Origin: an uncultured Candidatus Saccharibacteria bacterium
Lineage (GTDB): Bacteria; Patescibacteriota; Minisyncoccia; Minisyncoccales; UBA5738
Direction of reading: 5' to 3'
Assembly (NCBI GenBank): GCA_964603475.1
Contig: CAZRVG010000002.1
Location: 9,923-73,922 of the forward strand
DNA length: 64,000 nucleotides
This document shows positions 3,617 through 61,346 of the stretch, one piece after another; position 1 is the first letter of the stretch, and each line of letters begins with the position of its first letter. Made by a program: the position numbers and the translations under genes. The notes beneath the pieces are model-generated. The model was not told the DNA's origin. It ran no database searches and saw nothing but the letters and a program-made list of their open reading frames with translations.

Positions 3617-4207
3617 ATGGTTTATAATTCCGAAATTCATCATCGGAGATCAATAAGGTATGGAAAATATGATTATTCGCGGGACGGGGCTTATTTTATC
3701 ACGGTTTGCGCGCAGAATATGAAATGCGTTTTTGGAGAAATACAAAAAGGAGAAATGAAATTGAGTGGAGCGGGGGAAATGGTTGAATATTGGTGGCGGC
3801 AATTGCCGGAAAAGTTTCAAAATATACGGCTTGACGAATTCGCGGTGATGCCAAACCATTTTCACGGTATTTTGTGGATTGTAAATCGTAAGGGAGGTCT
3901 CCCGCGTTGTAGGGGCGACCTTTATGGTCGCCCGAGTTATGATTGTTCGAACGAGAGGAGGGCGGGTACAAGACCCGCCCCTACGAAAACACTTGGCAAC
4001 ATTGTTGGCGCGTTTAAATCGTTGATGACCAATGAATATATTCGAAATGTAAAGATGGGCAAATTCCCGCCGTTTGAAAAGTCAATTTGGCAGAGAAATT
4101 ATTGGGAGCATATCGTTCGCGATGACAAAGATTTAAACCGGATTCGCGAATATATCATCAACAACCCATTGAATTGGGAGTTGGACGAATTGTACCGCGC
4201 CGTGTAG
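3617..4207 (+). CDS. REP-associated tyrosine transposase (RAYT, IS200/Y1-like) carrying an in-frame REP doublet
   Basis: HUH motif MPNHFHGILWIV and C-terminal SIWQRNYWEHIVRD...IREYIINNP. Residues ~91-125 are encoded by REP hairpins. Confidence 0.85.
   Translation: MVYNSEIHHRRSIRYGKYDYSRDGAYFITVCAQNMKCVFGEIQKGEMKLSGAGEMVEYWWRQLPEKFQNIRLDEFAVMPNHFHGILWIVNRKGGLPRCRGDLYGRPSYDCSNERRAGTRPAPTKTLGNIVGAFKSLMTNEYIRNVKMGKFPPFEKSIWQRNYWEHIVRDDKDLNRIREYIINNPLNWELDELYRAV
3909..3984. repeat. REP doublet (REPIN-like) inside the RAYT coding sequence
   Basis: gtaggggcgacctttatggtcgccc (3909-3933) and gggcgggtacaagacccgcccctac (3960-3984), with GTAG heads pointing outward. Confidence 0.85.
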
Positions 4208-4297
4208 GGGCGACCTTTATGGTCGCCCGAATTTGAGGACGGTTGAAAAATAAAATGCGGGCACCCACAAGGGGTGCCTCTACGAATGTACGGGTGG
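4204..4297. repeat. REP cluster downstream of RAYT
   Basis: gtaggggcgacctttatggtcgccc (4204-4228, identical to 3909-3933), gggcacccacaaggggtgcctctac (4249-4273), and gggtggggtgcccctac (to 4297). Confidence 0.8.
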
Positions 4298-4729: not shown

Positions 4730-4803
4730 AGTTTGGGCAAGGTCGCACCTTGCCAATTATCCCTTGCTACGCTTCGGGATAATCGGCAAGGAACGACCTT
4801 GGG
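4730..4803 (+). repeat. 74-nt structured repeat, copy 1 (long form of the AAGGTCG...CGACCTT element)
   Basis: agtttgggcaaggtcgcaccttgccaattatcccttgctacgcttcgggataatcggcaaggaacgaccttggg. It differs from 5319-5392 at one position. Confidence 0.85.
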
Positions 4804-4810
4804 GACGCGA

Positions 4811-5305
4811 ATGCCGATACATTTGAATTATCAGGGGACGATTTGTGAAAAGTGCGGGGCGGAATTTATCGCCTGCGGCAAAAATTGCCAATGTCCGGCG
4901 TGCGGCCAAGCAACGGACGATTTTTGTGATTTTTGCGCCGCGACAATCGCGTCGATGAAAGACCACAAGCGGGTTTATGGCGCCTATTTTCCCGAAACAT
5001 GGTTTTCGGGATCGGTTGCCGACACAATCCAGCAAATCATTTTTGAGCTGTTTGATAATTTTGAGGCCGAAACTCCAAAAGATTTTTACTTGTTTGCCAT
5101 CGAGCATTTGGCGCAAATTAAATGGGAAGAAGGACAAGAGCATTTGGCGCCGCAGGCCGAGCAGATCGCGCTTGAAGTTTTTGAGATTTACAAGAGCGAT
5201 CCGGAGTTTCGCGGCGATAATTTAAAAACCAAACCAATTGATCCGAAACTGAAGGATATGAAAAGGGACCAATTATTTAATGGTTTACCAAATGATGACG
5301 AATGA
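4811..5305 (+). CDS. hypothetical protein with N-terminal zinc ribbon
   Basis: ATG 4811 sits just after the repeat. CEKCG...CQCPACG pairs of cysteines. No family recognised. Confidence 0.55.
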   Translation: MPIHLNYQGTICEKCGAEFIACGKNCQCPACGQATDDFCDFCAATIASMKDHKRVYGAYFPETWFSGSVADTIQQIIFELFDNFEAETPKDFYLFAIEHLAQIKWEEGQEHLAPQAEQIALEVFEIYKSDPEFRGDNLKTKPIDPKLKDMKRDQLFNGLPNDDE

Positions 5306-5318: not shown

Positions 5319-5392
5319 AGTTTGGGCAAGGTCGCACCTTTCCAATTATCCCTTGCTACGCTTCGGGATAATCGGCAAGGAACGACCTTGGG
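5319..5392 (+). repeat. 74-nt structured repeat, copy 2
   Basis: Direct repeat of 4730-4803 with 1 mismatch. Confidence 0.85.
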
Positions 5393-5583
5393 AATGCGAG
5401 GGGGTTGCCTTGAAAAGAGGGGATTTTTTTTATATGATGAGGGAAATAAAATAGTTTTCAATTGCCAGTTTGCATTGAGTTTTCAATGTATCAATGAATC
5501 AAACCAAATGCGGATTTGTATTTTGTTTGAAAATTGGACAATTGGTCATTCAATGAAAATTGAAAACTGAAAATTGAAAATTT

Positions 5584-6090
5584 ATGTTTTCAGCCGAAAA
5601 CATTGTTAAAGGGAAACTGGCGGAGGGTTTGGTGGAGCAGTTGTTAAAGGCAAGCGGTTGCCGGGTTTATCGCTTGGGCGCGGATGCCGCGCTGGAAAAC
5701 ATCGCGCAATTGGAAGACGAGTTTTCCAAAGACAGCGATTTGGGAAAAAAGATGGCGTCAATTCCTGATTTTGCCGTGATGGGATGCCGCGAAAAGCCGG
5801 TATTTGTGGAAGTGAAATTTCGCGCCGAGCCCGAATCGCTGGAAGAAGAATTGCTGTTAGAAAAAGACGCGCAAGAGAATTTTTGGAAGGCAAAAATCGT
5901 TTTGGTGACCACTAAAGAAAAGCCCTATTTTCGCGTGTTGACGCCGCCCTATTTTTCCAAAGAGAAACGCGACGGCTGGCCCATTCCGGTGGCAAACTGG
6001 AAGCCGTTGGAAAAGGATGAAGATTTGGGGTGCGGCAAAGATGTCATTAAAGAGTTTGAAGAATTGGCGGAGAAATACTACAATAAATAA
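5584..6090 (+). CDS. PD-(D/E)xK nuclease-fold protein (YraN/restriction-endonuclease-like)
   Basis: N-terminal GKLAEGLVEQLLKASGCRVYRLG, then IPDFAV ... VFVEVKFR (D...ExK arrangement). Confidence 0.55.
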   Translation: MFSAENIVKGKLAEGLVEQLLKASGCRVYRLGADAALENIAQLEDEFSKDSDLGKKMASIPDFAVMGCREKPVFVEVKFRAEPESLEEELLLEKDAQENFWKAKIVLVTTKEKPYFRVLTPPYFSKEKRDGWPIPVANWKPLEKDEDLGCGKDVIKEFEELAEKYYNK

Positions 6091-6198
6091 TTTTTAATTT
6101 GAAATTTTTAATTTTTAAACAATTTAAAAATTTAGAAATTTTTAAAGATTGAAACATTAAGAATTGTTTAAAAATTAAAAATTTCAAATTAAAAATTA
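6088..6198. repeat. perfect 37-bp inverted repeat with a 37-nt loop (AT-rich intergenic hairpin)
   Basis: Arm 6088-6124 taatttttaatttgaaatttttaatttttaaacaatt is the exact reverse complement of 6162-6198. Confidence 0.9.
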
Positions 6199-16807: not shown

Positions 16808-17818
16808 ATGATTACCAAAGAAAATAATAAAAATACAAAGTTAAAAATTGTTTGCTTGGGTGGGGGAAATTTGGTGCCCAAGGTGCTCTTGGAGCCGCTT
16901 AAAAAATATCCGTTTCAGTTAGCGGGTATTACTTCAATGGTGGATAGCGGCGGCGCGGCGGGCGCGTTGCGCAAGCAATTCGGCGTGCTTCCCCCCGGAG
17001 ATATAAGGCGTCATATTTTGGCACTATCCAATGCTCCAAAATGGAAGAAGGACCTTTGGAAGTTTCGTTTCGGTGATGAATTTTTCGGTGCTTGGCATAA
17101 GGGGCAATCTTTTGCCAATGCGTTTATCGCTGGATTGGAGTGGAATTTAAAAAGCCACAAAAAAGCCATGGTAATCATTTCCGAATTTATGGAAATTGGT
17201 AAAAACCGCGTTTTGCCCATGGTCATTGATAAAACACATATTATTGCCGAATTGGAAGACGGAAGCGAAATTATTGGCGAGGAAGAAATCGAGCTTGCCG
17301 GCAACCACGATACGAATTTAAAAATTAATAAAGTTTTCCAAAAACCAGAATCAAAAATGTTTTCCGAAGCCAAGAAGGCGATTTTGGAAGCGGACATAAT
17401 AACTATCGGTCCGGGTGATTTATATTCCAGCACAATTCCGTGCTTTTTGCCCAAGGATGCTCCGGCGATTTTCAAAAAATCCAAGGCAAAGAAAATTTTG
17501 ATCAGCAACACAGTTTCGCGCAAAGGGGAAACGCATGGATTTTCAATCAAAAGCTTTGCCGCGGAAGTGGAAAAATATATGGGGCATTCCCTGGACTATG
17601 TTATCTACAATAACGCCCCGATCGATACGGATTTGCTGAAAGAATACGAAAAAGAAGAATCTATGATCTGCGAACCGTTTAAAATTGATGTTGATTTACC
17701 CAAAGACAAATTTGTCGGCGCGGATTTATTGAAAAAAAAGGAATTTGCCTATGATCCAAAAAAAGTCATAAAGCAAATTTTTAAATTAATAAATTATCAA
17801 AATGGCAAAGGGAAATAA
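16808..17818 (+). CDS. YvcK/CofD-family (UPF0052) protein
   Basis: IVCLGGGN...[33 protein letters not shown]. Confidence 0.8.
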
Positions 17819-19127
17819 TCAACCATTGCAGGCGGTTATTTTGGCCGCCGGGGAATCATCAAGATTTTGGCCGCTGAACGGGAGGCATAAAAGTTTGTTG
17901 CAGGTTATGGGCAAGCCGCTGGTTTGGTATACCATTAACGGATTGCGCCAAATTGGAGTCGGCGAAATTGTGGTGGTACAAAGCCCGAAGTGTGAGATTG
18001 AAAAAGAGTTAAAAAACTTTTCTGAAATCAAAAATATCAGTTATGTTATTCAGCCGGAAGTAAACGGAATGAGCGGGGCGATGGTTGCGGCGCGAGATCA
18101 TATCAAGGGGCAATTTTTTGTGGTGCATGCCCACAGTATTGATTGCGGTGAGATTTGCGCCAAAATGGCGGAAAAATCGCGGCAAACCGGAACAAAAATA
18201 ATATTGGCGGGTCAAATTACAAAAACTCCTTGGCTCTATGGAATTGTCGGTCTTGATGAAGACAAGGTGACAGGAATGATTGAAAAGCCGGTCGAAGGCA
18301 AAGAGCCGTCAAATGTTAAAGTTAGAGGAATATATCTTTTTGATAAAAAATATTTGGATTGTCTGGATAAAGTTTTGGGAAAAGTGCATTTTAACCAAGA
18401 ATTTGAAGCTGCGATTGACGCTTATGCCAAGGAAAATGACGCGCGCGTTGTAATGTTGGATGAAAACTATACGGGAATATCTTTGAAATATTCGTGGCAT
18501 TTGTTTGGCGTGCAAAAATATCTTTTTGACAAATTTCTAACAAAACAAAAAATTGCCAATTCCGCGAAAATTGCCAAAAACGCGATCATTGAGGGCAATG
18601 TGGTTATCGGCGAAAATGTCAAAATTTACGAGGGGGCGGTGATTAAAGGACCGTGTTATATCGGCGATAATGCCGTGATTGGCAACAACAGCGTGGTGCG
18701 CGATTATTGCGATTTGGAGGATGGTGCGATAGTGGGTGCGTTTTGCGAAGCGGCGCGTTGCATATTCCAGCCGGATGTTCATGTTCATTCGGGATATTTC
18801 GGCGACTCAATTCTGGATCGGGGAGCGCGCGTCGGCGCGGGCGCGATCACCACAAATGTGCGCGTTGACCGAAAAGAAATTTCGGTTCTGATAAAAAAAG
18901 AAAAAAACGGCGAGAAAGTTTTGGCAAAAATTGCCACCGGATTGAAATCTTTGGGAGTTATCATCGGTCAAAATTCAAAAATCGGCGCGCGCGCCACCTT
19001 TATGCCCGGCCGATTTATCGGCAAAAACTGTTTGGTTGACTCCAACCAATTGGTAATGCGCAATATTGAAGATGACAGCAGTCTGGATGCGTTGAAGTCA
19101 AACTTCAACAAGCATATTGAAGTTTGA
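17802..19127 (+). CDS. bifunctional sugar-1-phosphate nucleotidyltransferase/acyltransferase (archaeal-type GlmU-like)
   Basis: N-terminal [18 protein letters not shown]-transferase fold plus C-terminal left-handed beta-helix hexapeptide repeats. Overlaps the upstream gene by 17 nt. Confidence 0.75.
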
Positions 19128-19134
19128 CTTCAAC
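19091..19134. repeat. palindrome with perfect 18-bp arms (copy 1; copy 2 at 22313-22356)
   Basis: gttgaagtcaaacttcaa ... ttgaagtttgacttcaac. It contains the stop codon at 19125-19127. Confidence 0.85.
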
Positions 19135-20635: not shown

Positions 20636-20707
20636 ACTGTGCAAAAATTGTGCAAGGTTTCACCTTGCAAGCTTGCAAGGTGAAACCTTGCACAATTTTT
20701 GCACAGT
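20636..20707. repeat. 72-bp perfect palindrome containing the CAAGGT-TTC-ACCTTG core
   Basis: Hand-checked: 20636-20671 is the exact reverse complement of 20672-20707. Confidence 0.9.
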
Positions 20708-20717
20708 TTATCAATTT

Positions 20718-21830
20718 ATGGAAGAAATATTTTTTTTGGCGATTGAAACTTCTTGCGATGATACCGCTATCGCGGTGATGCGTGCCGAAGAAGGGGGAGG
20801 CAAACTCAAAAAAATTGAGGCGGTTTCCAATATTGTTTCGTCGCAAGTCAAATTGCATGCCGAATATGGCGGAGTGTATCCTTCTTTGGCAAAGCGGGAG
20901 CATCAAAAAAATCTGCCCGTGGTTTTTGAAGACGCGGTCAAAGGTTTTGATTTGTCAAAATTAAAATTTATCGCGGTTACCCATGGCCCGGGGTTGGATC
21001 CGTGTTTGTGGACAGGGATTAATTTTGCCCAAGATTTGGCAAAAAAATATAATTTGCCGCTGGCGGGCGCCAATCATTTGGAAGCGCATTTTTTGGCGAA
21101 CCTGATAACTCTGGGAATCGGAGAAAAAGAATTTGAAAAAAATTATTTGCCGGCAATTTGCCTGGTGGTTTCGGGTGGCCACACGCTGTTATTTTTGGCA
21201 AACGCTATCGGCGGCTATCGGTTGTTGGGGCAAACCGTGGACGACGCGGCGGGCGAGTGCTTTGACAAATCCGCGCGCATTTTGGGCTTGAGCTATCCGG
21301 GCGGACCGGAAATCGCCAAACTCGCTTCTGCGCGGGTTAGACCCACGCAAACTTACAGGGGTCCAACCCCTGTCAAACTTACAGGGGTCCAACCCCTGCG
21401 GATTGAGCTTCCGCGGCCGATGATAAATCAGAAGAATTATAATTTCAGCTTTTCAGGATTGAAAACCGCGGTACTCTATGAAGTCCAAAAACGCGAACCA
21501 AAAGTTGCTCAATCCGATGAATACAAAATCGCGATGAGTTATGAAATCCAGCAGGCGATTGTTGATGTGCTGGTGAAAAAAACCGCGCGCGCGGCAAAAG
21601 AATTTGCCGGCAAGGCAATCATTATCGGCGGCGGCGTGAGCGCCAATTTGGCATTGCGCGAGGCGATGCAAAAGATGGCCGAGGAATTAGGAATTCAATT
21701 TTTGGCGCCGTCGGGGGATTTGTCAATGGATAACGCGGCGATGGCCGGAGTCGCCGGCTATTTTGCCTTTCGCCGCGGCGAAATCATCAAACCCGAAGAT
21801 CTCAAATCCCAGCCCAATTTAAGTTTGTAG
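20718..21830 (+). CDS. tsaD: tRNA N6-adenosine threonylcarbamoyltransferase
   Basis: LAIETSCDDTAIAV, GANHLEAH and SFSGLKTA motifs. ATG 20718 is preferred because the upstream ORF extension is palindrome-encoded. Confidence 0.9.
   Translation: MEEIFFLAIETSCDDTAIAVMRAEEGGGKLKKIEAVSNIVSSQVKLHAEYGGVYPSLAKREHQKNLPVVFEDAVKGFDLSKLKFIAVTHGPGLDPCLWTGINFAQDLAKKYNLPLAGANHLEAHFLANLITLGIGEKEFEKNYLPAICLVVSGGHTLLFLANAIGGYRLLGQTVDDAAGECFDKSARILGLSYPGGPEIAKLASARVRPTQTYRGPTPVKLTGVQPLRIELPRPMINQKNYNFSFSGLKTAVLYEVQKREPKVAQSDEYKIAMSYEIQQAIVDVLVKKTARAAKEFAGKAIIIGGGVSANLALREAMQKMAEELGIQFLAPSGDLSMDNAAMAGVAGYFAFRRGEIIKPEDLKSQPNLSL
21329..21399 (+). repeat. intragenic in-frame palindromic repeat block in tsaD
   Basis: tgcgcgggttagacccacgca plus two 26-nt tandem units caaacttacaggggtccaacccctg. 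Confidence 0.85.
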
Positions 21831-21850
21831 GGGCGAATGATTATTCGCCC
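21827..21850 (+). repeat. REP unit overlapping the tsaD stop codon
   Basis: gtaggggcgaatgattattcgccc. The TAG of the GTAG head is the tsaD stop (21828-21830). Confidence 0.85.
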
Positions 21851-21878
21851 CTGCAAATGCGAACGAAAACACGCGGGC

Positions 21879-22235: not shown

Positions 22236-22275
22236 GCAAGGTTTCACCTTGCAATCTTGCAAGGTGAAACCTTGC
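22236..22275. repeat. CAAGGT-TTC-ACCTTG family palindrome
   Basis: gcaaggtttcaccttgcaa-tc-ttgcaaggtgaaaccttgc. Confidence 0.85.
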
Positions 22276-22312: not shown

Positions 22313-22356
22313 GTTGAAGTCAAACTTCAATGCGCTTGTTGAAGTTTGACTTCAAC
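22313..22356. repeat. palindrome with perfect 18-bp arms (copy 2)
   Basis: Arms are identical to 19091-19134. Only the spacer differs. Confidence 0.85.
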
Positions 22357-22383
22357 ACTTCAACAAGGTTTATTAATTCATAT

Positions 22384-25234: not shown

Positions 25235-27379
25235 TTATTTGCATTCTTTGTTGGAGCACCTTACAAGCTTGCGCTTGGTTTCAACCATTAAACTGCCGCA
25301 TTTTTCGCATTTTTCGCCGGTGGGTTTGTCCCAGAGGGCGAAGTCGCAATCGGGGTAGGCCGAACAACCGTAGAAAATTTTGCGTTTCTTGGTGCGCTTT
25401 TCCACGATGTGGCCAGTGCCGCATTTGGGGCAGGGGATCTCCTTTTCAAACGCGGGCTTTTGGGGTTCCAGCGGTTCGGCGTGTTTGCATTCGGGGAATT
25501 TGGGGCAGGCCAAAAATTTGCCGAAGCGTCCCATTTTGATCACCAGATTGGCGCCGCACTTGGGGCAGATTTTGTCGGTGGCGATCGCGGTTTTGTTGGC
25601 CTTTTCAACTTCTTGGTATTTTTCTTCTAAATTTTTCGCGAACGGCTCATAAAATTCGCGCAAAACTTTTGTCCACTCGGCTTGTCCCTCGGCGATATCG
25701 TCAAATTCTTCCTCCATTTTGGCGGTAAAATCAATATCCACGATTTTTGGGAAATGTGCCACGAGCAAGTCATTGACCATTAGTCCGATCTCGGTGGGTT
25801 TTAGCGATTTTTTTTCGTCTTTTTCAATATAATTTCGCGTTTGAATGGTGGAGATAATCGGCGCGTAAGTGGAGGGGCGGCCGATGCCGTGGGCTTCCAT
25901 TGCTTTGATGAGCGTGGCTTCGTTGTAGCGCGCCGGCGGCTTGGTGAAATGCTGGTTGGCGTCAAGTTTGATAAATTCCAGCGGTTCGCCATCTTCCATT
26001 TTTGGCAAATCAAGCTCTTCAAATTTGGAGGGATAAACTTTTAAATAGCCGTCAAATTTCAATGTCTGGCCTGAAGCTCGAAATCCATAATTTGCGGGGG
26101 TTGCGCGGGTTAGACCCATGCAAGCTTGCGTGGGTCTAACCCGCGCAATATCTTCTGCGGCACATTGCGCGGAAATGTCCGCACTGATTGAATCAAAAAG
26201 CGCCGGGTTCATTTGGCTGGCGATAAATCTTTGCCAAATGAGTTCATAAAGTTTTGCTTGCGGCCGGGTGAGGTTTTTGTCGGTCAGCGCCATTTCGGGA
26301 GTTTGATCCGCGTATGCCGGGCGGATCGCCTCGTGAGCTTCTTGCGCGCCTTTGGATTTGGTTTTATAGGTTTTGAAATTCCCTGAATGATATTGGGCGC
26401 CATAAGTCTTGGTGATGAAATCCTTTGCCGCGGTTAAAGATTGAACCGACAAATTGAGCGAGTCGGTGCGGTGGTAAGTTATCAACCCCATTTCATATAG
26501 TTGTTGAGCGGTCATCATCGCGGCCTTGCCGGTCATTTTAAATCTTTGCCAGGCGGTTTGCTGCAAGGTTGAGGTGGTGAACGGCGGCAGGGGATTTTTG
26601 CGGGTTTCTTTTCTATCAATTTTTGCCACCGAATAAGCGGCGTTTTTTAAATTTTCTTCAATGGCGATGGCTTGATTTTCATCTTTTATTTCCAACTTAT
26701 CCAGCGTTTTGCCGTTGATTTTTGCCAGTCGCGCGGCAAATTCTTTTTTGGGGCCGTTTTTGGTGTTTTTTAGGTTTGCCAAAATTTCCCAATATTCTTC
26801 GGGATTGAAGGCCTCAATTTCCCGTTCGCGTTCGGCGATCAGGCGCACGGCCACGGATTGCACCCGTCCCGCTGATAATCCCTTAACGATCTTTTTCCAC
26901 AAAAACGGAGATAGCTTATAGCCCACAATGCGGTCCAAAATCCGCCGTGCCTGTTGAGCGTTAACCAAATCAATGTTGATTTCCCGCGGATTTTTCAGGG
27001 CTTCATCAATCGCGGTTTTGGTGATCTCATGAAATTCAATCCGCCGATAGAGCCTGCCTTCAACTTTTTTGGTCTTTGGCTTGCCCAGTTTCAACGCTTC
27101 AATTAAATGCCAAGCGATGGCTTCGCCCTCGCGATCCGGATCGGTGGAGATCAAAACCTCATCGGCCTTTTTGGTTTGCGCCTTCAACTCTTTTATCGTG
27201 CTTTTGCCTTTGGTCGTGATGGCGTATTTGGGAGCAAAATTATTTTCAATGTCCACGCCAAAAACAGTTCTGGGCAAGTCGCGCACATGGCCGTATGATG
27301 ATAAAATTTTATAATCGCTCCCTAAAAATTTTTGCAAAGTTTTCGCCTTGGTGGGCGATTCAACAATAATCAGCTTCAT
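25235..27379 (-). CDS. topA: DNA topoisomerase I (type IA)
   Basis: Toprim LIIVESPTKAKT, ITYHRTDS active-site region, three C-terminal CPKCG-type zinc ribbons. Confidence 0.95.
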   Translation of the reverse strand: MKLIIVESPTKAKTLQKFLGSDYKILSSYGHVRDLPRTVFGVDIENNFAPKYAITTKGKSTIKELKAQTKKADEVLISTDPDREGEAIAWHLIEALKLGKPKTKKVEGRLYRRIEFHEITKTAIDEALKNPREINIDLVNAQQARRILDRIVGYKLSPFLWKKIVKGLSAGRVQSVAVRLIAEREREIEAFNPEEYWEILANLKNTKNGPKKEFAARLAKINGKTLDKLEIKDENQAIAIEENLKNAAYSVAKIDRKETRKNPLPPFTTSTLQQTAWQRFKMTGKAAMMTAQQLYEMGLITYHRTDSLNLSVQSLTAAKDFITKTYGAQYHSGNFKTYKTKSKGAQEAHEAIRPAYADQTPEMALTDKNLTRPQAKLYELIWQRFIASQMNPALFDSISADISAQCAAEDIARVRPTQACMGLTRATPANYGFRASGQTLKFDGYLKVYPSKFEELDLPKMEDGEPLEFIKLDANQHFTKPPARYNEATLIKAMEAHGIGRPSTYAPIISTIQTRNYIEKDEKKSLKPTEIGLMVNDLLVAHFPKIVDIDFTAKMEEEFDDIAEGQAEWTKVLREFYEPFAKNLEEKYQEVEKANKTAIATDKICPKCGANLVIKMGRFGKFLACPKFPECKHAEPLEPQKPAFEKEIPCPKCGTGHIVEKRTKKRKIFYGCSAYPDCDFALWDKPTGEKCEKCGSLMVETKRKLVRCSNKECK
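26103..26146. repeat. intragenic 44-bp palindrome in topA (GCGCGGGTTAGACCC family)
   Basis: gcgcgggttagacccatgcaag|cttgcgtgggtctaacccgcgc, with one mismatch between the arms. Confidence 0.9.
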
Positions 27380-27481
27380 AAATTTCTAAATTTCTAATTT
27401 CTAATGCCAAAATAAATTCCAAAATTTTGAAATTTTAAATTTATTAATTTATTCAAAAATTAGAAATTAGTAATTTCGGAA

Positions 27482-28345
27482 TTAATTCAAACAGTATTCT
27501 CCGTTGCCCAGATTGCGCACGAGGTTGTTTATCTCCATCACGGGGATCGCGCTCATCACGATTTGCGCGGGGAGTTTTGTCGCCAAAATTATTTTATCAA
27601 TATTTAACGCGCCGTCTTTTAAAATGTCCAAAATTTTTTGCTCTTCGGGGGAAACATTTCGCGCGGCAATTTTTGCCGGCGCGGCGGCCAATCCCAATTC
27701 ATCCAAAATATCTTGAGCCGCGGTTGCGGGCTTGCCGCCGTTTTTTAACAGCCAATTGCAGCCGGCCGAGTTTGCCGCGTAAATTGATCCGGGAACCGCG
27801 AAAACCGGCTTGTGCTGTTTTCTGCCCCATTCGGCGGTGATTAGCGATCCGGACTTTTCCTTGGCTTCAATGACCGCCACGGCCAAAGATAATCCGGCGA
27901 TAATGCGGTTTCGCTGGGGAAAAGAATAATAGGTGGATTTAAATCCCGGCTCGTATTCGCTAATCAAACAACCGCCAGTATCAACTATATTTTGCGCCAA
28001 GTCAAGATTTGCTTGCGGGAAAAACGATTCCTTGTCAAGCCCGGCGCCGATGACGCCGCAAGTCAATCCGCCGCATTCAAGGGCGGTTTGGTGGGCGATA
28101 GTGTCAATGCCGGGCGCCATTCCCGAAATAATGCAAACGCCGGCGCGGAACAGTCCCGCGGCGATGTCATGCGCGGCTTGCTTGCCATAAGTTGACGGCA
28201 CCCGCGCCCCGACGATCGCCACGCATGGCGCGGCAATATTTATGTTGCCGCGGTAATATATTTGCTTGGGCCGTGAGGGGATGGTGCGCAAACAATTGGG
28301 AAATTCAATATCTCCTTCAACAATTTTTTGGATTTCGTATTCCAT
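27482..28345 (-). CDS. dprA: DNA-processing protein DprA
   Basis: VAIVGARVPSTYG and GMAPGIDTIAHQ motifs. Confidence 0.9.
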   Translation of the reverse strand: MEYEIQKIVEGDIEFPNCLRTIPSRPKQIYYRGNINIAAPCVAIVGARVPSTYGKQAAHDIAAGLFRAGVCIISGMAPGIDTIAHQTALECGGLTCGVIGAGLDKESFFPQANLDLAQNIVDTGGCLISEYEPGFKSTYYSFPQRNRIIAGLSLAVAVIEAKEKSGSLITAEWGRKQHKPVFAVPGSIYAANSAGCNWLLKNGGKPATAAQDILDELGLAAAPAKIAARNVSPEEQKILDILKDGALNIDKIILATKLPAQIVMSAIPVMEINNLVRNLGNGEYCLN

Positions 28346-28414: not shown

Positions 28415-28460
28415 TCCAAAAAAGGTCTAACTTTTCAGATGCCCGTAAGGTTAGACCTTT
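28415..28460 (-). terminator. terminator hairpin after pth, with a GGTCTAAC/GTTAGACC stem
   Basis: aaaggtctaac (28421-28431) pairs with gttagaccttt (28450-28460). On the minus strand it is followed by a T-run. Confidence 0.55.
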
Positions 28461-28500
28461 TCAAACTTCGGATGTATGCACATTAACGATTGACGATTAT

Positions 28501-34112: not shown

Positions 34113-34709
34113 ATGGTTTTCGCGCGAAAGAAAACATTTTCAATTTTGGCGTCTTTAACCGTTTTTGTCGCGGCCGGTTTTTGGCTTTTAAACCATTGCG
34201 GGCTGTTGCAAGCGCAAAACGACGGCGGCAAATGGAAAAATTTTACCGAAGGCGTTTATGGTTTTTCTGTTGATTATCCGGCTGATTGGGGAATTGATGC
34301 CAATTACGATCAATACGCGCCCGGGATTATCAGCGCGGAAATGCATAATAAAGAATGCGGCGGGCAAAATCAATGCGGCTTTGATTGCGTTGATATTAGA
34401 ATTTTGGCCGCCAAAAAAGAAATTGGCGGTAAAAGCCACGGCTTGCTCCTGCAATTATACGAGGATTTTATGATGGTGCGTGATTTTGCCGACGCGTCTT
34501 TGGTCAAAGAAGTTGATTTGGCGGGCAAAAAAGCGTTTGAATTAGTTGATAATCAAGCCACGCTGGCGTTAAACGGGCGCTGCGGCGGCCCTTTTTACGT
34601 TTTTGAGACCGAAAAACATTTTGTTTATATTTTCACCGGCTACGGCGCCGACATCGCCGAAATATCCGGCGAAGCCAAAAAAATAATCGAATCGGTGAAA
34701 GTGGATTAA
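34113..34709 (+). CDS. hypothetical membrane-anchored/secreted protein (paralogue 1)
   Basis: N-terminal TM ILASLTVFVAAGFWLL. Motif YGFSVDYPADW is shared with the two following genes. Confidence 0.6.
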   Translation: MVFARKKTFSILASLTVFVAAGFWLLNHCGLLQAQNDGGKWKNFTEGVYGFSVDYPADWGIDANYDQYAPGIISAEMHNKECGGQNQCGFDCVDIRILAAKKEIGGKSHGLLLQLYEDFMMVRDFADASLVKEVDLAGKKAFELVDNQATLALNGRCGGPFYVFETEKHFVYIFTGYGADIAEISGEAKKIIESVKVD

Positions 34710-34780
34710 CATATAATCATTTAAGCATTGAAACATATAAACATATAATCATTGGAACATATAATCATTTAATCAGGGAA

Positions 34781-34802
34781 ACAGGGGGTGCCCTGTTTTT
34801 TG
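34781..34802 (+). terminator. rho-independent terminator
   Basis: acaggg-ggtg-ccctgt followed by T6. Confidence 0.6.
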
Positions 34803-39163: not shown

Positions 39164-39181
39164 TAAAAAAGCTCCAATAAT

Positions 39182-39294
39182 CAAATTCCAAGCTCCAAAT
39201 AATATTCAATATTAAAAATTATAATATTTAAAAATTAGATTTTGATTATTGGAATTTACTTTGGGATTTGGGGCTTGATGCTTGGAATTTAATT
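39182..39294. repeat. AT-rich MITE-like inverted-repeat element, copy 2
   Basis: Shares both termini and a 32-nt identical block with 444-555. Confidence 0.6.
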
Positions 39295-42093: not shown

Positions 42094-42693
42094 ATGAAAA
42101 AAGTGGCGCAAAAAGGTGATTTTTTGGATATTTTATTGAGATCAAAGAAAACCGTTTTTTCCGTAAAAGACGTCGTTTTGCTTTGGGGCGATTCCAATAT
42201 CAGCGCGGTCCAGGTGAGATTGCATTACTATGTTAGGAACAAAAAGCTTATTCATCTGCGGCGCGGAATTTATGCCAAGGATCCAAATTATAACAAATAC
42301 GAACTGGCAAACCATATTTTGCGGCCTTCATACGTGAGTTTTGAAACCGTGTTGGCGGCGGCGGGAATAAATTTTCAATATTCTTCCCATATTTTTTCCG
42401 CGTCCCACGCAAAAAGAGAAATAGTTTGCGATGGAACGACCTATGTGTTTGCAACGATAAAAAAGGGAATTTTGACCAATCCCGCGGGCATCGATCAAAG
42501 CGGGGAATATTCCATTGCGGTTCCGGAGCGCGCGTTTTTGGACACGATATACCGGAGCAAAGATTATCATTTTGACAATTTGGAGCCGTTAAATTGGGAA
42601 AAAGTTTTTGACATTTTATCAATCTACGAAAATAAAAAAATGAGCCGGAAGGTGGGACAATACCACAAATGGTTTCAATCCGGCCGCCTGTAA
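42094..42693 (+). CDS. abiEi: type IV toxin-antitoxin/abortive-infection AbiEi-family antitoxin
   Basis: N-terminal wHTH-like region, LIHLRRGIYAK and SYVSFETVLAAAGI, typical of AbiEi. Lies directly upstream of the AbiEii gene. Confidence 0.7.
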   Translation: MKKVAQKGDFLDILLRSKKTVFSVKDVVLLWGDSNISAVQVRLHYYVRNKKLIHLRRGIYAKDPNYNKYELANHILRPSYVSFETVLAAAGINFQYSSHIFSASHAKREIVCDGTTYVFATIKKGILTNPAGIDQSGEYSIAVPERAFLDTIYRSKDYHFDNLEPLNWEKVFDILSIYENKKMSRKVGQYHKWFQSGRL

Positions 42694-42695
42694 AT

Positions 42696-43397
42696 ATGTT
42701 AAACATTGCCGTTCATAAAGAAATTTTGTTACGAATTCTGCGCGATATCTATTCCGATGAATCAATAGGTCCGCTTTTGGGTTTTAAAGGAGGCACGGCC
42801 GCTTATCTGTTCTATGGTCTTGATCGTTTTTCCGTGGATTTGGATTTTGATCTTTTGGGCGCGGCCAAAGAGGAATATGTTTTTAACCGAGTGAAAAAGA
42901 TTATTAGCGAGTACGGAACGATCAAAGATGCGCGCATCAAAAGATTCAATTTGTTTTTCTTGCTTTCTTATAGCGACAAAAAAGAGGGGGCGCAGAATAT
43001 TAAAATTGAAATAAACCGGCGCGGATTCGATTCCTGCTATAAAATAAAATCGTTTATGGGCATTCCCATGAATGTGGCGGTGCAAGAGGATATGTTCGCT
43101 TGCAAATTAATGGCGATGTATGAGCGGTTGGGAAGAACAAACCGCGATATTTACGATGTTTGGTTTTTTGGAAAAAATATGTGGCCGATAAATCGGAAAA
43201 TCGTGGAAAAAAAATCAAAGATGGCTTATGGCGAATTTTTGGATAAAATCCTCAAAAAACTGGAAAAATTCAACAATAAAAGAATTTTGGACGGATTGGG
43301 CGAATTGCTGAATGAAAAACAAAAAGATTGGGTGCGAAAAAATCTGCTAAAAGACGTTATTTTTAATATTAAGTTAATGGCACAACAAAAACTCTAA
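42696..43397 (+). CDS. abiEii: nucleotidyltransferase AbiEii/AbiGii toxin family protein (DUF1814)
   Basis: GFKGGTAAYLFYGLDRFSVDLDFD NTase motif. ATG is 3 nt after the abiEi stop. Confidence 0.8.
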   Translation: MLNIAVHKEILLRILRDIYSDESIGPLLGFKGGTAAYLFYGLDRFSVDLDFDLLGAAKEEYVFNRVKKIISEYGTIKDARIKRFNLFFLLSYSDKKEGAQNIKIEINRRGFDSCYKIKSFMGIPMNVAVQEDMFACKLMAMYERLGRTNRDIYDVWFFGKNMWPINRKIVEKKSKMAYGEFLDKILKKLEKFNNKRILDGLGELLNEKQKDWVRKNLLKDVIFNIKLMAQQKL

Positions 43398-43513: not shown

Positions 43514-44296
43514 ATGAAAATATGCGGATTGCAAAAAACAACGTTGATTGATTATCCGGGGAAGGTGGCGTGCACGGTGTTTACCGCGGGGTGTAATTTT
43601 CGGTGTCCATGGTGCTATTCCAAGGAATTGGTTTTGCCCGAATTGATCGCTCAACAGCCCGAAATCCCCGAAAGCGAGATTTTGGAATTTTTAAAAGAAA
43701 AGCAAGGTCTTTTGGAGGGCGTGGTTTTGTGCGGGGGAGAGCCCACGCTGCATCCTGATTTGCCCCAATTTTGCAAAAAGATAAAAGATTTGGGGTTTGA
43801 GGTGAAATTGGATTCCAACGGCTCCAATCCAAAAATGCTAAAAGAATTGATTGACCAAAAATTGATTGACTATGTGGCAATGGACATCAAACTTCCCAAA
43901 GAAAGATACGCCACTCTCTTTTGCGCGGGTCAGACCCACGCAAATTCAGCGCGGGTCAGACCCGCGCAATCTGCACAATCTGCGCGGGTTCGGGGGATAA
44001 GTGTTGATGATATAGAGGAAAGCATTAAAATTTTGAAAAATTCCGACATCGGCTTTGAATTTCGCACCACCTGCGCGCCGACGGTTCACACGCCCGAAGA
44101 TTTTGAAATTATGGCCAAATGGATCGGGCAAGACATTCCCGGCCGATCGCCAAAATACTTTTTGCAGAATTTCAAACCCGGACGAAACATCGACCCCAAG
44201 TTTGAAGACCTAAAACCCTTTGACAACGAATTTTTCACCGCCGCCCTTGCCAAAATCAAACCCTACGTTCCCGACTGCCACTTGCGCGACCTGTGA
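43514..44296 (+). CDS. nrdG: anaerobic ribonucleoside-triphosphate reductase activating protein (radical SAM)
   Basis: TLIDYPGKVACTVFTAGCNFRCPWCYS (CxxxCxxC) and GVVLCGGEPT. Confidence 0.9.
   Translation: MKICGLQKTTLIDYPGKVACTVFTAGCNFRCPWCYSKELVLPELIAQQPEIPESEILEFLKEKQGLLEGVVLCGGEPTLHPDLPQFCKKIKDLGFEVKLDSNGSNPKMLKELIDQKLIDYVAMDIKLPKERYATLFCAGQTHANSARVRPAQSAQSARVRGISVDDIEESIKILKNSDIGFEFRTTCAPTVHTPEDFEIMAKWIGQDIPGRSPKYFLQNFKPGRNIDPKFEDLKPFDNEFFTAALAKIKPYVPDCHLRDL
43923..43995 (+). repeat. intragenic in-frame repeat block in nrdG (GCGCGGGTCAGACCC family, about three degenerate copies)
   Basis: gcgcgggtcagacccacgca ... gcgcgggtcagacccgcgca ... tgcgcgggttcgggg. Confidence 0.85.
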
Positions 44297-44447
44297 TAAT
44301 AACCGATAACTAACGAACATTCCAACATACTTGAGAATGTGAGAATGTTCACAGGGTTTTATGATTTTGCGTTTTATGCTTATATGCTTAAATGATTATA
44401 TGATTAGCGAAGCGTATGCTTAAATGTTTCTATGATTAAATGATTTT

Positions 44448-45191
44448 ATGATTCCGCAATATGATTTGGAGAAAATTAAGTTCGGAGTGGGCGAAAAGAC
44501 TTGGGAGCGGGCGGTGGGGCTTTATGAAGCCGGGAAGATAAGCGAGGTGGAGGAAGGTTATTTTGGCTTTACCGCGCGGGTTTTGGGTACCCAGCCCTAT
44601 GATGTGGCAGTTTCCCAAACACATTATGATCGCGGCGATTGCAATTGTTTTGTGGGGCAACGCGATATGCTTTGCAAGCATATGGTGGCGTTGGCGATAT
44701 GGGCGGTTTTGCGCGGCGCGCCGTTGTCCGAAGACGATAAAAAACAAAAAAACGAGGTGGAATTTTGCGGCAAAACCGGCGAGTTGAGCGGCGAAGAATT
44801 GGCGCGGGCTAAAGAAAAAATCCGCGAGGCGCAAAAATATATCAAAGCCTGGCGCGGACCGTCAAAAAAATGGTTTGCCTATCAAAACTCTTTGTCCGAA
44901 GGTTGTAATCGCTTGTCCGCCGTTATCAGCGAATTGCCGGCTAGTCCGCAAACCGCTAAACTGATGATTGATTTGCTTTTGCGGCTGGATAAAAAACTAT
45001 GCACCGGCGGGGTGGATGATTCCGACGGCACCGTGGGCGGCTTTATTGAAAGTTGCGTGGCTTTATTGTTGGAATTTGTCCAAGCCGATAAAAACTGCGC
45101 CAAGGCGTTCAAAAAACTGGCAAAAGTTGAAACCAGTTTTGGCTGGGAAGAACCCCTAATGCGCCATTACGACGACGAATACTGCAAATGA
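44448..45191 (+). CDS. SWIM zinc-finger domain protein
   Basis: CNCFVGQRDMLCKHMVALAIW is a CxC...CxH SWIM signature. Confidence 0.7.
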   Translation: MIPQYDLEKIKFGVGEKTWERAVGLYEAGKISEVEEGYFGFTARVLGTQPYDVAVSQTHYDRGDCNCFVGQRDMLCKHMVALAIWAVLRGAPLSEDDKKQKNEVEFCGKTGELSGEELARAKEKIREAQKYIKAWRGPSKKWFAYQNSLSEGCNRLSAVISELPASPQTAKLMIDLLLRLDKKLCTGGVDDSDGTVGGFIESCVALLLEFVQADKNCAKAFKKLAKVETSFGWEEPLMRHYDDEYCK

Positions 45192-45525: not shown

Positions 45526-45870
45526 ATGAACAAAATAACGCGCGGACAAATAAAATTTCTTATTTTTAAAAAGAAAGGCGATAAACTTTTCACTGGCGTG
45601 TGTTTGGATTTTGGAATGGTGATTCAAGGGAAGACGATAGATGAAGTTAAGAATGAGTTAAGCGCGGTTTCGCTGGGTTATCTCAAAACCGTAAAAAAAG
45701 AGAAATTAAGCGAAGATTTGCTTAATAATCAAGCGGAAAAAAAATATTTTGATTTGTACAAGGCGTTTTTAAAATCGGCGAAAGAGGAAAAACCGCTAAA
45801 ATCTGCGATAAAAAGCATTGATGAATGTTGTGTGAGTCTCAATAATCTCAAAAATTATTGTTATGCCTAA
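45526..45870 (+). CDS. hicB: HicB-like antitoxin (putative)
   Basis: FTGVCLDFGMVIQGKTIDEVKNELSAVSLGYL resembles the HicB N-terminal fold. Overlaps hicA by 8 nt. Confidence 0.55.
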   Translation: MNKITRGQIKFLIFKKKGDKLFTGVCLDFGMVIQGKTIDEVKNELSAVSLGYLKTVKKEKLSEDLLNNQAEKKYFDLYKAFLKSAKEEKPLKSAIKSIDECCVSLNNLKNYCYA

Positions 45871-46144
45871 TGGATTGCTCAATTGGAAGTTTAAAGATAT
45901 TGAGCGTTTTTTGAGGAAGCATTATTTTAAGCATGTGAATACCGAAGGGTCGCATTTTTATTATCGCGGATGCGTGGATGGTCAAGAAAGATTAACATTT
46001 GTTCCGTGGCACAGGGGGAAAAGCATCCCGCCGAAAACCCTTGAGTCAATTATTTACAAATCCGGAATTCCCAAAAACTTTTGGAAAAAATGGGGGAGTG
46101 GAGACAAGAACACTCATTATGAAGGAGCGCAGATATGGGAGTGA
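45863..46144 (+). CDS. hicA: type II toxin-antitoxin system HicA family toxin
   Basis: FKDIERFLRKHYFKHVNTEGSHFYY...FVPWHRGKSIPPKTLESIIYKSGIP. Confidence 0.7.
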   Translation: MPNGLLNWKFKDIERFLRKHYFKHVNTEGSHFYYRGCVDGQERLTFVPWHRGKSIPPKTLESIIYKSGIPKNFWKKWGSGDKNTHYEGAQIWE

Positions 46145-49156: not shown

Positions 49157-49272
49157 CCAAATTTCCAATTACCAATTTCCAATAAATGACCGAATGCCAA
49201 AATTTTAAAATTATGAAATTTTTGAATTTTGGAATTTATTCTGAAATTGGAAATTGGGAATTCTGAAATTTT
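49152..49272. repeat. 121-nt AT-rich element, copy 1 (copy 2 at 52642-52762)
   Basis: aatgaccaaatttccaattaccaatttccaataaatgac...ggaatttatt...attggaaattgg...gaaatttt is shared nearly base-for-base. Confidence 0.75.
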
Positions 49273-49276
49273 TATT

Positions 49277-52641: not shown

Positions 52642-52762
52642 AATGACCAAATTTCCAATTACCAATTTCCAATAAATGACAAAATGTTAAAATTTTAAAA
52701 TTATGGAATTTTTTAATTCTGGAATTTATTTTGACATTGGAAATTGGAAATTTTGAAATTTT
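52642..52762. repeat. 121-nt AT-rich element, copy 2
   Basis: See 49152-49272. Confidence 0.75.
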
Positions 52763-52766
52763 ATCT

Positions 52767-56234: not shown

Positions 56235-56300
56235 GCATTGCTTGCAAAGTTTGCATAGGTGCCACCTATGCAAGTTCAGCCCCCCGCCAAACTTATAGGA

Positions 56301-56392
56301 TGTTTCGCCCCGCAGTAGAAATTCGGCGCGCCATGGCGCAACCAAGAAAGCCGAATTTACACTGCGGGGCATACCCGAAAGGTGCAATGGAT
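56301..56392 (+). repeat. 92-bp direct repeat, left copy (flanks the R-M island)
   Basis: Identical to 61347-61438 except at one base. Contains a 20-bp-stem hairpin ccccgcagtagaaattcggc/gccgaatttacactgcgggg. Confidence 0.9.
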
Positions 56393-56407
56393 CTTGCGCG
56401 ATAGGTT

Positions 56408-61315: not shown

Positions 61316-61346
61316 TTTTAAAGCGAAAGCGGATTATTGATGGGGT

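Follow-up and report, generated by a model that had tools for sequence, protein, structure and literature searches.

In-frame palindromic repeats resembling REPs in tsaD and other housekeeping genes of a Candidatus Saccharibacteria genome

The hairpin block in tsaD and other hairpins of the window

In this study, we analysed a 64-kb stretch of genomic DNA from an uncultured Candidatus Saccharibacteria bacterium (hereafter, the window), in which tsaD contains a block of short palindromes within its reading frame. The features at this locus are as follows.

20636–20707, unstranded: 72-nt perfect palindrome made of two inverted TGCAAGGT-TTC-ACCTTGCA hairpins flanking AGCT (fold, repeat search)
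20718–21830, + strand: tsaD coding sequence (370 aa), host of the insert (TIGR03723, PDB matches, ORF)
21329–21350, + strand: unit A hairpin in tsaD, TGCGCGGGT-TAG-ACCCACGCAA, read as ARVRPTQ (sequence, repeat search, fold)
21348–21399, + strand: two identical 26-nt units B in tsaD, CAAACTTACAGGGGT-CCA-ACCCCTG (motif search, codon alignment)
21827–21852, + strand: GTAG-tagged REP, GTAGGGGCGAATGATTATTCGCCCCT, whose GTAG provides the TAG stop codon of tsaD (sequence)

The gene was identified by its match to TIGR03723 (331 bits; cut-off 296) and by the similarity of its product to TsaD entries in the PDB (E = 8e-66), and the ATG at 20718 agrees with the starts of the orthologues. The hairpin block is 71 nt long (21329–21399) and consists of one 22-nt unit A, TGCGCGGGTTAGACCCACGCAA, followed by the two B units, which were recovered as CAAACTTACAGGGGTCCAACCCCTG at 21348–21372 and 21374–21398 (two matches versus zero expected) and are translated in two frames, QTYRGPTPV and KLTGVQPL. 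As single-stranded DNA, the block folds into three hairpins (-21.9 kcal/mol, z = -5.4). This is the arrangement, a hairpin followed by two tandem 26-nt hairpin units, that a preliminary description of this DNA had claimed. The same description took TsaD to be collinear with characterised homologues except in one loop, and the solved structures agree: between GGPxIxxxAK and PRPM there is a short turn of about 8 residues in 8iey and 6n9a versus 27 in the window TsaD, and the proteins are collinear elsewhere. In an AlphaFold2 model of TsaD with a mean pLDDT of 90.4, residues 207–240 are predicted as coil and residues 209–221 fall below 50, which places the insert in a low-confidence coil of an otherwise confident model; low pLDDT may stem from disorder but also from an alignment that is shallow or variable.

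The window contains 14 perfect hairpins with a GGT apex and a 3-nt loop, whereas 0.12 are expected and none of 100 simulations gave more than 2, and the folding z-scores of the window hairpin elements range from -5 to -14. Among the GC-rich 3-nt-loop hairpins of the window and 12 related loci, 25 of 45 have a GGT-ACC apex. The palindrome directly 5' of tsaD (20636–20707; -42.6 kcal/mol, z = -14.5) belongs to the TGCAAGGT-TTC-ACCTTGCA family, the commonest intergenic hairpin family in the window; intergenic doublets in inverted order are found there and at 22236–22275. The GTAG REPs of the window, about 12 in number, form a family separate from units A and B. The most frequent GC-containing 12-mer, CAAGGTTTCACC, has 8 copies in 64 kb. 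A DNA uptake sequence, that is, one 9–12-mer at about one copy per kb, was rejected because of this low count and the variation of the stems.

Copies of unit A in other genes and their reading frames

A search of the window with the unit A query GCGGGTYAGACCCRC, allowing up to two mismatches, returned 8 matches versus 0.15 expected, a number reached in none of 100 shuffles. The matches are located in tsaD, topA, nrdG and one intergenic relative. The copies claimed earlier for topA and nrdG were thus recovered, as were the related intergenic hairpins claimed alongside them.

25235–27379, - strand: topA coding sequence (714 aa), second host (Pfam Topoisom_bac, Toprim and Zn ribbon domains)
26101–26148, unstranded: 48-nt near-perfect palindrome in topA made of two inverted A units flanking AAGCTT (repeat search, fold)
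28418–28462, unstranded: intergenic inverted pair AAAAGGTCTAACTTTT ... AAGGTTAGACCTTTT in the dprA/pth gap (sequence)
43514–44296, + strand: nrdG (class III ribonucleotide reductase activase), third host (TIGR02495, 200.9 bits; cut-off 131)
43921–43996, + strand: nrdG insert made of two direct A units with CAG loops and a truncated third unit (repeat search)
56407–56429, unstranded: intergenic relative of unit A, TTCAGAGGGT-TAG-ACCCTCTGAA (repeat search)

The topA palindrome (-28.2 kcal/mol, z = -9.8) is translated as ARVRPTQACMGLTRA and belongs to a stretch of 24 residues standing in place of about 5 (+19 aa net). The insert peptide includes ARVRPTQACMGLTR, and its position in an alignment to a solved structure corresponds to a short turn. 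The nrdG gene comes after the NrdD gene (relatives have an NRDD domain in that position), and its insert is translated as CAGQTHANSARVRPAQSAQSARVR (+21 aa net). Every complete copy of units A and B in the window falls within tsaD, topA or nrdG. On another metagenome contig (L052), unit A is present as an in-frame inverted doublet in a uvrC-like gene, and the related locus L003 has AAAGGTCTAACCTTT at 19324, similar to the unit at 28418–28462 and followed by an identical cagatgcc flank. The units measure 17–26 nt and the whole intragenic inserts 21–76 nt. Only 4 contigs were matched in a metagenome scan for unit A, so this unit is lineage-restricted.

It is very improbable that these palindromes arose locally and are immobile, as products of slippage or template switching in loop-coding DNA whose likeness between genes is convergent. 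Such an origin would account for the exact 26-nt tandem duplication of unit B, for the direct tandem units and truncated third unit in nrdG, and for the concerted change of both arms, which fits template switching. However, near-identical 22-mers are present in three unrelated genes as well as in uvrC and intergenic DNA of other contigs, although 0.15 unit A matches are expected by chance, and the B doublet is common to both TsaD and NrdG of relatives.

Two further identities were tried for unit A and rejected. GTTAGAC/GTCTAAC fit the GTTRRRY/RYYYAAC consensus of an integron attC-like site, but the order is wrong and the loops of other family members are unrelated. A type III restriction site does not fit because loops differ between hairpin families. 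A type III restriction system is encoded at 56607–61315, and the A loop contains AGACC.

The preliminary description stated that three of three intragenic copies are open and read in one frame. The absence of stops was borne out: all four intragenic blocks, a sample of four sites and one 64-kb window, are open in the frame used and have net lengths that are multiples of three. The single frame was not, because the first nrdG copy reads CAGQTHA (the second reads ARVRPAQ) and the uvrC-like copy in L052 also uses another frame; the second A copy in topA, in inverted orientation, gives CMGLTRA. On each strand, one of three frames is open through the topA palindrome, compared with two of three through the tsaD block. 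The TAG loop of unit A shuts one frame per strand, and the copies read in the third frame have CAG in its place. Frame usage can therefore be explained by the fact that only some frames avoid the TAG stop in the loop; it is solely the CAG loop that leaves the third frame open in the nrdG copies. In yeast mitochondria, short GC-rich hairpins (mobile GC clusters and 'byp' elements) spread in an AT-rich compact genome and also enter protein-coding genes; byp elements interrupt the reading frame, and the ribosome skips them. Unlike byp elements, the inserts in the window all keep the frame without stops, so that ordinary translation is a simpler reading than byp-like skipping. Translational bypass was rejected on the same evidence.

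Insertion history, reuse of sites and conservation of stems

Comparison with close orthologues supported the claim of insertion. The TopA insert is absent from L003, L004, L007 and L008 (77–82% identity) and also from P0243–P0245 (85% identity), while the NrdG site is empty in P0123/L055 (84% identity) and the insert is missing from most of the 70 homologues in the alignment shown. In the tsaD codon alignment of L001, L002, L007 and L008, the B doublet is present and unit A is absent; unit A was gained recently and cleanly beside the B doublet, the net gain being 21 nt (7 codons). The alignment indicates that the tsaD block results from two events, an older B doublet common to relatives and a later unit A. 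The topA segment (26103–26146) was rejected as a clean insertion because its flanks also differ (CAAEDI...TPA versus GNSGT in relatives), suggesting that part of the old loop was replaced or diverged. MITEs are recognised by terminal inverted repeats of 15–30 bp and target-site duplications. At the empty/filled junctions of tsaD, topA and nrdG, where the flanks are much diverged, no target-site duplication was readable, and no transposition event or terminal inverted repeat was definable.

It is scarcely conceivable that assembly created the segment or that it is simply ancestral protein sequence, and for TopA and NrdG this explanation is already refuted. The exact TsaD product is recorded once only, with no second record in other assemblies, as an artefact would be. 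On the other hand, orthologues lack the segments, the DNA is palindromic and repeated, and the identical NrdG product is found on 5 contigs (those inspected came from JGI, ENA and Logan assemblies) and the identical TopA product in a Logan contig. Related inserts are present in dozens of independent assemblies, and the B doublet in tsaD in many independent assemblies of relatives. These records argue that the intragenic inserts are no assembly artefact.

The inserts turn over quickly, and the tsaD, topA and nrdG sites are occupied by other hairpin families in related lineages. A TsaD loop of at least 19 residues is present in 40 of 54 close homologues, compared with 6 of 60 distant homologues, and the loop DNA in relatives consists of hairpin doublets with lineage-specific stems; those of L004 and L005 are inverted doublets, and hairpins are found in this loop even in distant CPR lineages such as L011. 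Variants with covarying stems are present at the topA site of P0242, P0246, P0254 and P0266. The nrdG site contains a variant of unit A in L053 and the B doublet in L057, and the two nrdG units show concerted change between the window and L053. P0009 and P0023 are 97% identical outside the TsaD loop and have different cassettes, and unrelated cassettes are found in two tsaD alleles of about 99% identity; the C allele of tsaD retains a 3' remnant of a B unit. Mismatches between tsaD alleles are concentrated next to the loop, and the loci form a mosaic with identities of 91–99%, suggesting that recombination between alleles explains part of the interleaving of cassettes better than new insertions do.

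Of the third codon positions within the stems of the tsaD B units, 8 of 8 are identical in five genomes (effectively four, since L002 and L007 do not differ here), whereas 86 of 220 are identical elsewhere (p = 7e-4). In a set of 20 unit-A-like hairpins, 19 cells were changed on both sides of the pair, compared with 6.0 ± 1.9 after shuffling, and none of 500 shuffles reached 19. The perfect conservation of stems in the five genomes could mean selection for function rather than selfish persistence. We consider it unlikely, however, that the hairpins are functional nucleic-acid signals under selection, that is, protein-binding sites or RNA structures that keep the mRNA stable or set the speed of translation, and that the loops merely accommodate them. 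E. coli REPs bind gyrase and IHF. A signal of this kind would explain why the stems do not change even at synonymous positions although the bases of loops and spacers, and the amino acids they encode, do, why complementarity is kept across lineages by covariation, why hairpins occupy the same loops in distant CPR lineages such as L011, and why the GGT-N3-ACC apex is conserved among families. It is not easily reconciled with the many close relatives that lack a hairpin at the TopA and NrdG sites, and in some cases at TsaD, with the replacement of one family by another at the same site, or with decayed copies such as ARVKSAQ in P0002. Furthermore, an Rfam search of the whole window at gathering thresholds returned two tRNAs only and matched no hairpin, and template switching within hairpins or conversion to a master copy could keep palindromes perfect without selection. 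Of the 'selfish palindromic element' proposed in the preliminary description, the repeat, the in-frame insertion and the tolerance of the loop are supported; selfishness is unproven. The conservation of stems at the nucleotide level allows function or active homogenisation.

Relation to REPs and RPEs, and the RAYT-like gene

GTAG/CGTC REPs are described by Di Nocera, De Gregorio and Rocco (2013, PMC3733652) as GC-rich hairpins of 20–40 bp that are mostly intergenic and often dimers. According to the parts of that account used here, a minority lie wholly inside ORFs, often in replication and repair genes (uvrA/B/C, polA), and encode 20–30 residues, and the GTAG ends of REPs provide TAG stop codons. 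The same holds for the GTAG stop at the end of tsaD, and the in-frame dimers in topA and in L052 uvrC correspond to these intragenic REPs. Like a REP, unit A is a short GC-rich palindrome in many dispersed copies, and frequent inverted doublets with a short spacer, as in REPs and REPINs, are found in topA, the TsaD loops of L004 and L005, and L052 uvrC. Unlike tagged REPs, units A and B (flanks TTCT/CAAA and CTTA/TCAA) have no GTAG or CGTC; their loop is 3 nt long, the GGT...ACC apex is conserved and the outer stems vary. Their full copies in the window are intragenic, unlike the extragenic majority of REPs, although such exceptions are documented in PMC3733652, and the host differs in being a Patescibacteria/CPR genome. 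Reuse of one loop by different families and exchange of cassettes between near-identical alleles are seen here and not in the parts of PMC3733652 used.

RPEs (Ogata et al. 2000, as excerpted in PMC10969869) comprise ten Rickettsia-specific families of about 100–150 bp, and the peptides they encode are judged compatible with the protein fold. The tsaD, topA and nrdG inserts are likewise palindromic repeats carried in frame by unrelated housekeeping genes of a reduced genome, and the core of the preliminary description, an RPE-like repeat accepted in tolerated surface loops, is thereby supported. At 17–26 nt, the units are set apart from RPEs by the size given in the excerpt and are closer to REPs and REPINs in size and shape; they also lack the CGTC tag of the shorter RPE-4 and RPE-6, which the passages used from PMC3733652 class as CGTC-tagged REPs. 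Similarity to the REPIN-RAYT system (Bertels and Rainey; bioRxiv 10.1101/2021.07.10.451892), in which typical REPINs are about 100 bp, lies in the inverted doublets of short hairpins, in persistent master sequences, specific to a lineage, whose changes are concerted, and in a single RAYT-type gene with its own REPs in the window. Units A and B are an untagged variant of a described kind of repeat (intragenic REPs, RPEs) in a new phylum; literature searches for palindromic insertions in CPR/Patescibacteria gave nothing relevant.

We propose that the tsaD block probably represents two generations of a REP/REPIN-like palindromic repeat carried in frame in a disordered surface loop. The repeat unit would be a 17–23-nt hairpin whose GGT...ACC apex encloses a 3-nt loop, usually arranged as a 44–52-nt doublet in direct or inverted order, and several sequence families of this design would populate the genome, most copies being intergenic. 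We infer that units A and B are mobilised by copy-and-paste or gene conversion acting on hairpin DNA; the leading candidate for the enzyme is an HUH/Y1 RAYT-like protein that would act in trans on single-stranded hairpins. Intragenic copies would persist only where the frame is kept, no stop is introduced and the extra 7–24 residues fall in a spare loop, and the inserts are presumably translated and harmless. In tsaD, the older B doublet, shared with sister genomes, would have been followed by addition of the A unit in the window lineage. Existing hairpin sites may attract more hairpins, and homologous recombination may swap hairpin alleles between strains, and through both processes a handful of loops would become recurrent hot spots.

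Few known genomes are as small and streamlined as those of CPR/Patescibacteria. The continued proliferation of repeats in their essential genes shows that streamlining does not exclude such DNA. The inserts provide a natural tolerance map, with loops of TsaD, TopA, NrdG and UvrC accepting 7–40 extra residues. They inflate apparent protein divergence, can mislead alignments and structure models, and could act as strain markers. With their reused sites and swaps between near-identical alleles, they lend themselves to the study of REP-type turnover and recombination in bacteria that are uncultured and naturally competent, and the GGT-N3-ACC family widens the question of how untagged (GTAG-less) REPs are mobilised.

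The window also contains the following RAYT-like features.

3617–4207, + strand: RAYT-like (REP-associated tyrosine transposase-like) gene (NF047646, Pfam Y1_Tnp)
3909–3984, + strand: GTAG REP doublet, in frame in the RAYT-like gene (CRGDLYGRP...RAGTRPAPT; sequence, fold)

This gene is the only transposase-type gene among the window ORFs scanned against Pfam. Its NF047646 score of 63.3 bits is below the cut-off of 80; when the internal REP doublet is removed, the protein scores 72.9 bits with NF047646 and 25.9 with Pfam Y1_Tnp (cut-off 23). No RAYT-like gene was found in the fetched relative loci (1–21 kb each). RAYTs use a GTAG tag, and units A and B lack it, so the RAYT-like gene may serve the GTAG family only. 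A wider reading, possible though doubtful, is that the hairpins are not just tolerated debris and that a REPIN-like system is actively held matched to a lineage master at a few fixed hot spots in essential genes, with cassettes exchanged and the RAYT-like family following the same pattern. As part of this wider reading, strains whose flanking gene is about 99% identical would trade whole cassettes, and thousands of RAYT-like proteins appear to carry their own in-frame GTAG REPs in the loop that follows the HUH motif, suggesting that the enzyme recognises or regulates its own gene. In the 64 kb of genome seen, the repeats that flank and interrupt the RAYT-like gene are GTAG REPs and not units A or B, and the first REP of the doublet inside the gene is identical to the copy at 4204–4228, just 3' of the gene (family D8).

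Palindromic units inside tsaD, topA and nrdG

The segment at 21329–21399 in tsaD, located as the preliminary description had it, consists of TGCGCGGGTTAGACCCACGCAA and then CAAACTTACAGGGGTCCAACCCCTG in two exact copies whose starts lie 26 nt from each other. We refer to the 22-nt hairpin with a TAG loop (21329–21350) as unit A and to the two 26-nt hairpin units (21348–21399) as the B doublet. Folded as single-stranded DNA, the three hairpins reach −21.9 kcal/mol (z = −5.4). Unit A (GCGGGTYAGACCCRC) has eight matches in the window at up to two mismatches (0.15 expected; 0 of 100 shuffles reached eight), placed in tsaD, topA, nrdG and one intergenic relative. The repeat is therefore real and multi-copy, and the assignments of TopA and NrdG as host genes are secure. 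The intergenic pair reported earlier was also found, at 28418–28462.

Unit A, its host genes and neighbouring palindromes
20636–20707: 72-nt perfect palindrome, an inverted doublet of TGCAAGGT-TTC-ACCTTGCA, just upstream of tsaD
20718–21830, + strand: tsaD (TIGR03723, 331 bits against a cut-off of 296)
25235–27379, − strand: topA (Pfam), host of a 48-nt palindrome at 26101–26148
43514–44296, + strand: nrdG (TIGR02495, 200.9 bits, and position after the NrdD gene)
43921–43996: two direct copies of unit A and a truncated third, in nrdG
56407–56429: intergenic relative of unit A

The window contains 69 perfect hairpins whose loop is 3 nt and whose stem is 6 bp or longer, against about 33 expected, and 14 of these have the apex GGT-NNN-ACC (0.12 expected). 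When 12 related loci are included, this apex occurs in 25 of 45 GC-rich 3-nt-loop hairpins, with variable loops. The commonest family, TGCAAGGT-TTC-ACCTTGCA, lies between genes, frequently as inverted doublets; further families are TTGCATAGGT-GNC-ACCTATGCAA and AAAGGT-CTA-ACCTTT. An AGT...ACT variant overlaps gene ends at 19091–19134 and 22313–22357, which are two 89%-identical copies of the inverted doublet GTTGAAGTCAAACTTCAAC ... TTGAAGTTTGACTTCAAC. The former provides the final 11 codons and the stop of an NTP-transferase/hexapeptide gene (17802–19127), and the latter spans the predicted start of a ZIP transporter ORF at 22330.

Insertion, reading frames and conservation of the stems

The segments in TopA, NrdG and TsaD are insertions rather than old protein sequence. 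Comparison with orthologues, proposed for TsaD in the preliminary description, yielded TopA and NrdG relatives without inserts and TsaD relatives without unit A. At the TopA site, the 24 residues of the window correspond to a 5-residue turn in the related loci L003, L004, L007 and L008 (77–82% identity) and likewise in the homologues P0243–P0245 (85%); the alignment with a solved topoisomerase I shows a gap at this position. In NrdG, LFANDGISADDIE is uninterrupted in homologue P0123 (84% identity), as it is in the majority of the 70 aligned homologues shown. In TsaD, the spacing from GGPxIxxxAK to PRPM is 27 residues, compared with about 8 in solved structures. Codon alignment showed that the B doublet is common to L001, L002, L007 and L008, and that all four lack unit A, which adds a net 21 nt (7 codons) directly 5' of the doublet; an older and a younger event are therefore preserved in the tsaD block. 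AlphaFold2 predicts TsaD with high overall confidence (mean pLDDT 90.4, pTM 0.87); residues 207–240 are modelled as coil, and 209–221 are below pLDDT 50. An identical NrdG product occurs on five contigs, those read being JGI, ENA and Logan assemblies, and an identical TopA product also in one Logan contig. There is no second record on file for the exact TsaD product; the species representatives closest to this Patescibacteria MAG have 69–79% identity in TsaD.

The claim that the repeat is read in one frame in all three genes was partly borne out: an ARVRP-type reading recurs (ARVRPAQ in the second nrdG copy), but the first nrdG copy (CAGQTHA) and the inverted topA copy (CMGLTRA) differ. The two B copies in tsaD, QTYRGPTPV and KLTGVQPL, lie in different frames because their 26-nt period is one short of 27. 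A doublet in the uvrC-like gene of L052 is translated as CAGQTHAKKMRGSDPR. Six-frame translation accounts for this pattern, since the TAG loop shuts one frame on each strand. Only a single frame per strand is open in the topA palindrome, and two of three are open in the tsaD block. In the nrdG copies, all three forward frames are open solely because the loops have CAG instead of TAG. The frame pattern is one of survivorship and would argue for translation of the inserts over skipping.

Across five genomes, 8 of 8 third codon positions in the B-doublet stems are invariant, compared with 86 of 220 at residues conserved elsewhere in tsaD (Fisher p = 7e-4); L002 and L007 do not differ here, which leaves effectively four independent sequences. 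The loop and spacer bases vary, as do the encoded residues. Twenty unit-A-like hairpins are 94% paired and carry 19 two-sided pair changes against 6.0 ± 1.9 in shuffled sets (0 of 500 reached 19); the pattern with which they were gathered prescribed the outer GC and inner GGT/ACC pairs and left the middle pairs unconstrained. The two nrdG units have changed jointly between the window and L053 (CAG to CGG in the loop, GCGCGGG to GCGTGGG in the stem). These data are compatible with homogenisation to a lineage-specific master copy, with correction within the hairpin and with selection alike.

Reuse and exchange of the insertion sites

Of 114 parsed TsaD homologues, 54 are close relatives, 40 of which have a loop of at least 19 residues; such a loop occurs in 6 of the 60 distant homologues. 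At the DNA level, the loop contains doublets of hairpins whose stems are specific to the lineage (ACAGGGGT, AAAAGGGT, GCGAAGGT, GCGGAGGT), all with the GGT...ACC apex; the loop of L006 has no doublet, and a Berkelbacteria relative has its own hairpin pair. Insert types are interleaved on the TsaD tree. P0009 and P0023 carry different cassettes despite 97% identity outside the loop; their genes are about 99% identical on either side of it, with mismatches concentrated beside the loop, and the loci are mosaic (91–99% identity). The C-type allele retains the last 9 nt of a B unit. From these alignments, we read the pattern as probable nested insertion followed by allele exchange through recombination. 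The competence genes for ComEC and DprA fit recombination tracts flanking the loop. Besides these two proteins, the window encodes the toxin-antitoxin components AbiEii and HicA (the four genes jointly at 27482–28345, 46174–47637, 42669–43397 and 45863–46144).

At the NrdG site, unit A is present in the window and in L053, and unit B in L057 and others; most homologues have no insert there. Covarying hairpin variants occupy the TopA site in P0242, P0246, P0254 and P0266. A second variable TopA site follows KKVEG (about residue 108 in L003/L008; also P0248, P0274 and P0275); there some relatives, but not the window, have an additional 10–15 residues (GKPPSAKAMA, GNPASARAMA, APSLAKTAKGKKAAA, RQGRGSPKAA), with no clear palindrome in the DNA. 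The uvrC-like gene of L052 (5339–6538) has an in-frame inverted unit-A doublet, GCAGQTHAKKMRGSDPRK, and a second possible hairpin-coded segment, SGSKSGEVKPHQ, further upstream.

Relation to tagged REPs and other repeats in the window

A second, classical family comprises GTAG-tagged REPs (short palindromic repeats), GTAGGGGCG...CGCCC with 4–5-nt loops, of which the window has about 12. The copy at 21827–21852 begins within the last tsaD codons, and its GTAG provides the stop TAG. A GTAG REP doublet also lies in frame in a gene resembling RAYTs (REP-associated tyrosine transposases):

3617–4207, + strand: RAYT-like gene (NF047646, 63 bits, below the cut-off of 80)

Without the doublet, the protein aligns in a single stretch (72.9 bits) and clears the Pfam Y1_Tnp threshold. 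The family has 26,629 representatives at E ≤ 1e-3. In the 55 parsable sequences among the best 150 of these, the gap between MPNHxH (HUH motif) and LGxIVGAFK spans 6–131 residues and often holds peptides resembling translated GTAG REPs (VGAPLVGAQ, RAGTRPAPT, GDHKGRPY, VGADLRVCP). In-frame REPs within the enzyme's own gene may be a family-wide feature; no description of them was found in the parts of the REP/RAYT literature consulted. Beside this gene, 81-nt direct repeats (4730–4810 and 5319–5399, 96% identical), each with GGCAAGGTCGCACCTTGCC and a second stem-loop, bracket a cysteine-rich ORF (about 4817–5305) without a Pfam match.

The kind of repeat seen here is already described. Di Nocera et al. 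(2013; PMC3733652) report GTAG- and CGTC-tagged REPs within genes of several species, many in replication or repair genes, with dimers encoding 20–30 residues and GTAG ends supplying TAG stops, and equate RPE-4 and RPE-6 (Rickettsia palindromic elements) with CGTC REPs. REPINs are reportedly almost exclusively extragenic (bioRxiv 10.1101/2021.07.10.451892). Units A and B behave like intragenic REPs and RPEs, but they lack the tag of either REP superfamily and are not of the size of RPEs proper, given as about 100–150 bp in PMC10969869. The original observation is confirmed and its RPE-like interpretation largely right. What is new is the untagged GGT-N3-ACC family and its host phylum, the reuse and swapping of the same loops, and the conservation of stems at the nucleotide level; we found no paper in the literature that describes inserts of this sort in CPR bacteria. 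The mechanism of copying is inferred, as is any role for the RAYT-like protein.

Other repeats are also present. Direct repeats of 105 nt (56295–56399 and 61340–61444, 95% identical), which contain a long inverted repeat, CCCCGCAGTAGAAATTCGGC...GCCGAATTTACACTGCGGGG, enclose a type III restriction-modification pair (mod 56607–58547, res 58544–61315), which suggests a mobile cassette. AT-rich repeats of about 128 nt (49152–49279 and 52642–52769, 89% identical; 427–555 and 39165–39294, 78–84%) lie upstream of unrelated genes, including ORF 49229, a Clp-type ATPase gene (52731) and nrdD (39435); they might represent promoter or leader regions in common. AT-rich arrays that repeat every 8 nt, such as ATGCTTATATGCTTAAATGATTATATGATT, occupy intergenic DNA at 34705–34784, 44368–44453, 6090–6190 and 27384–27481.
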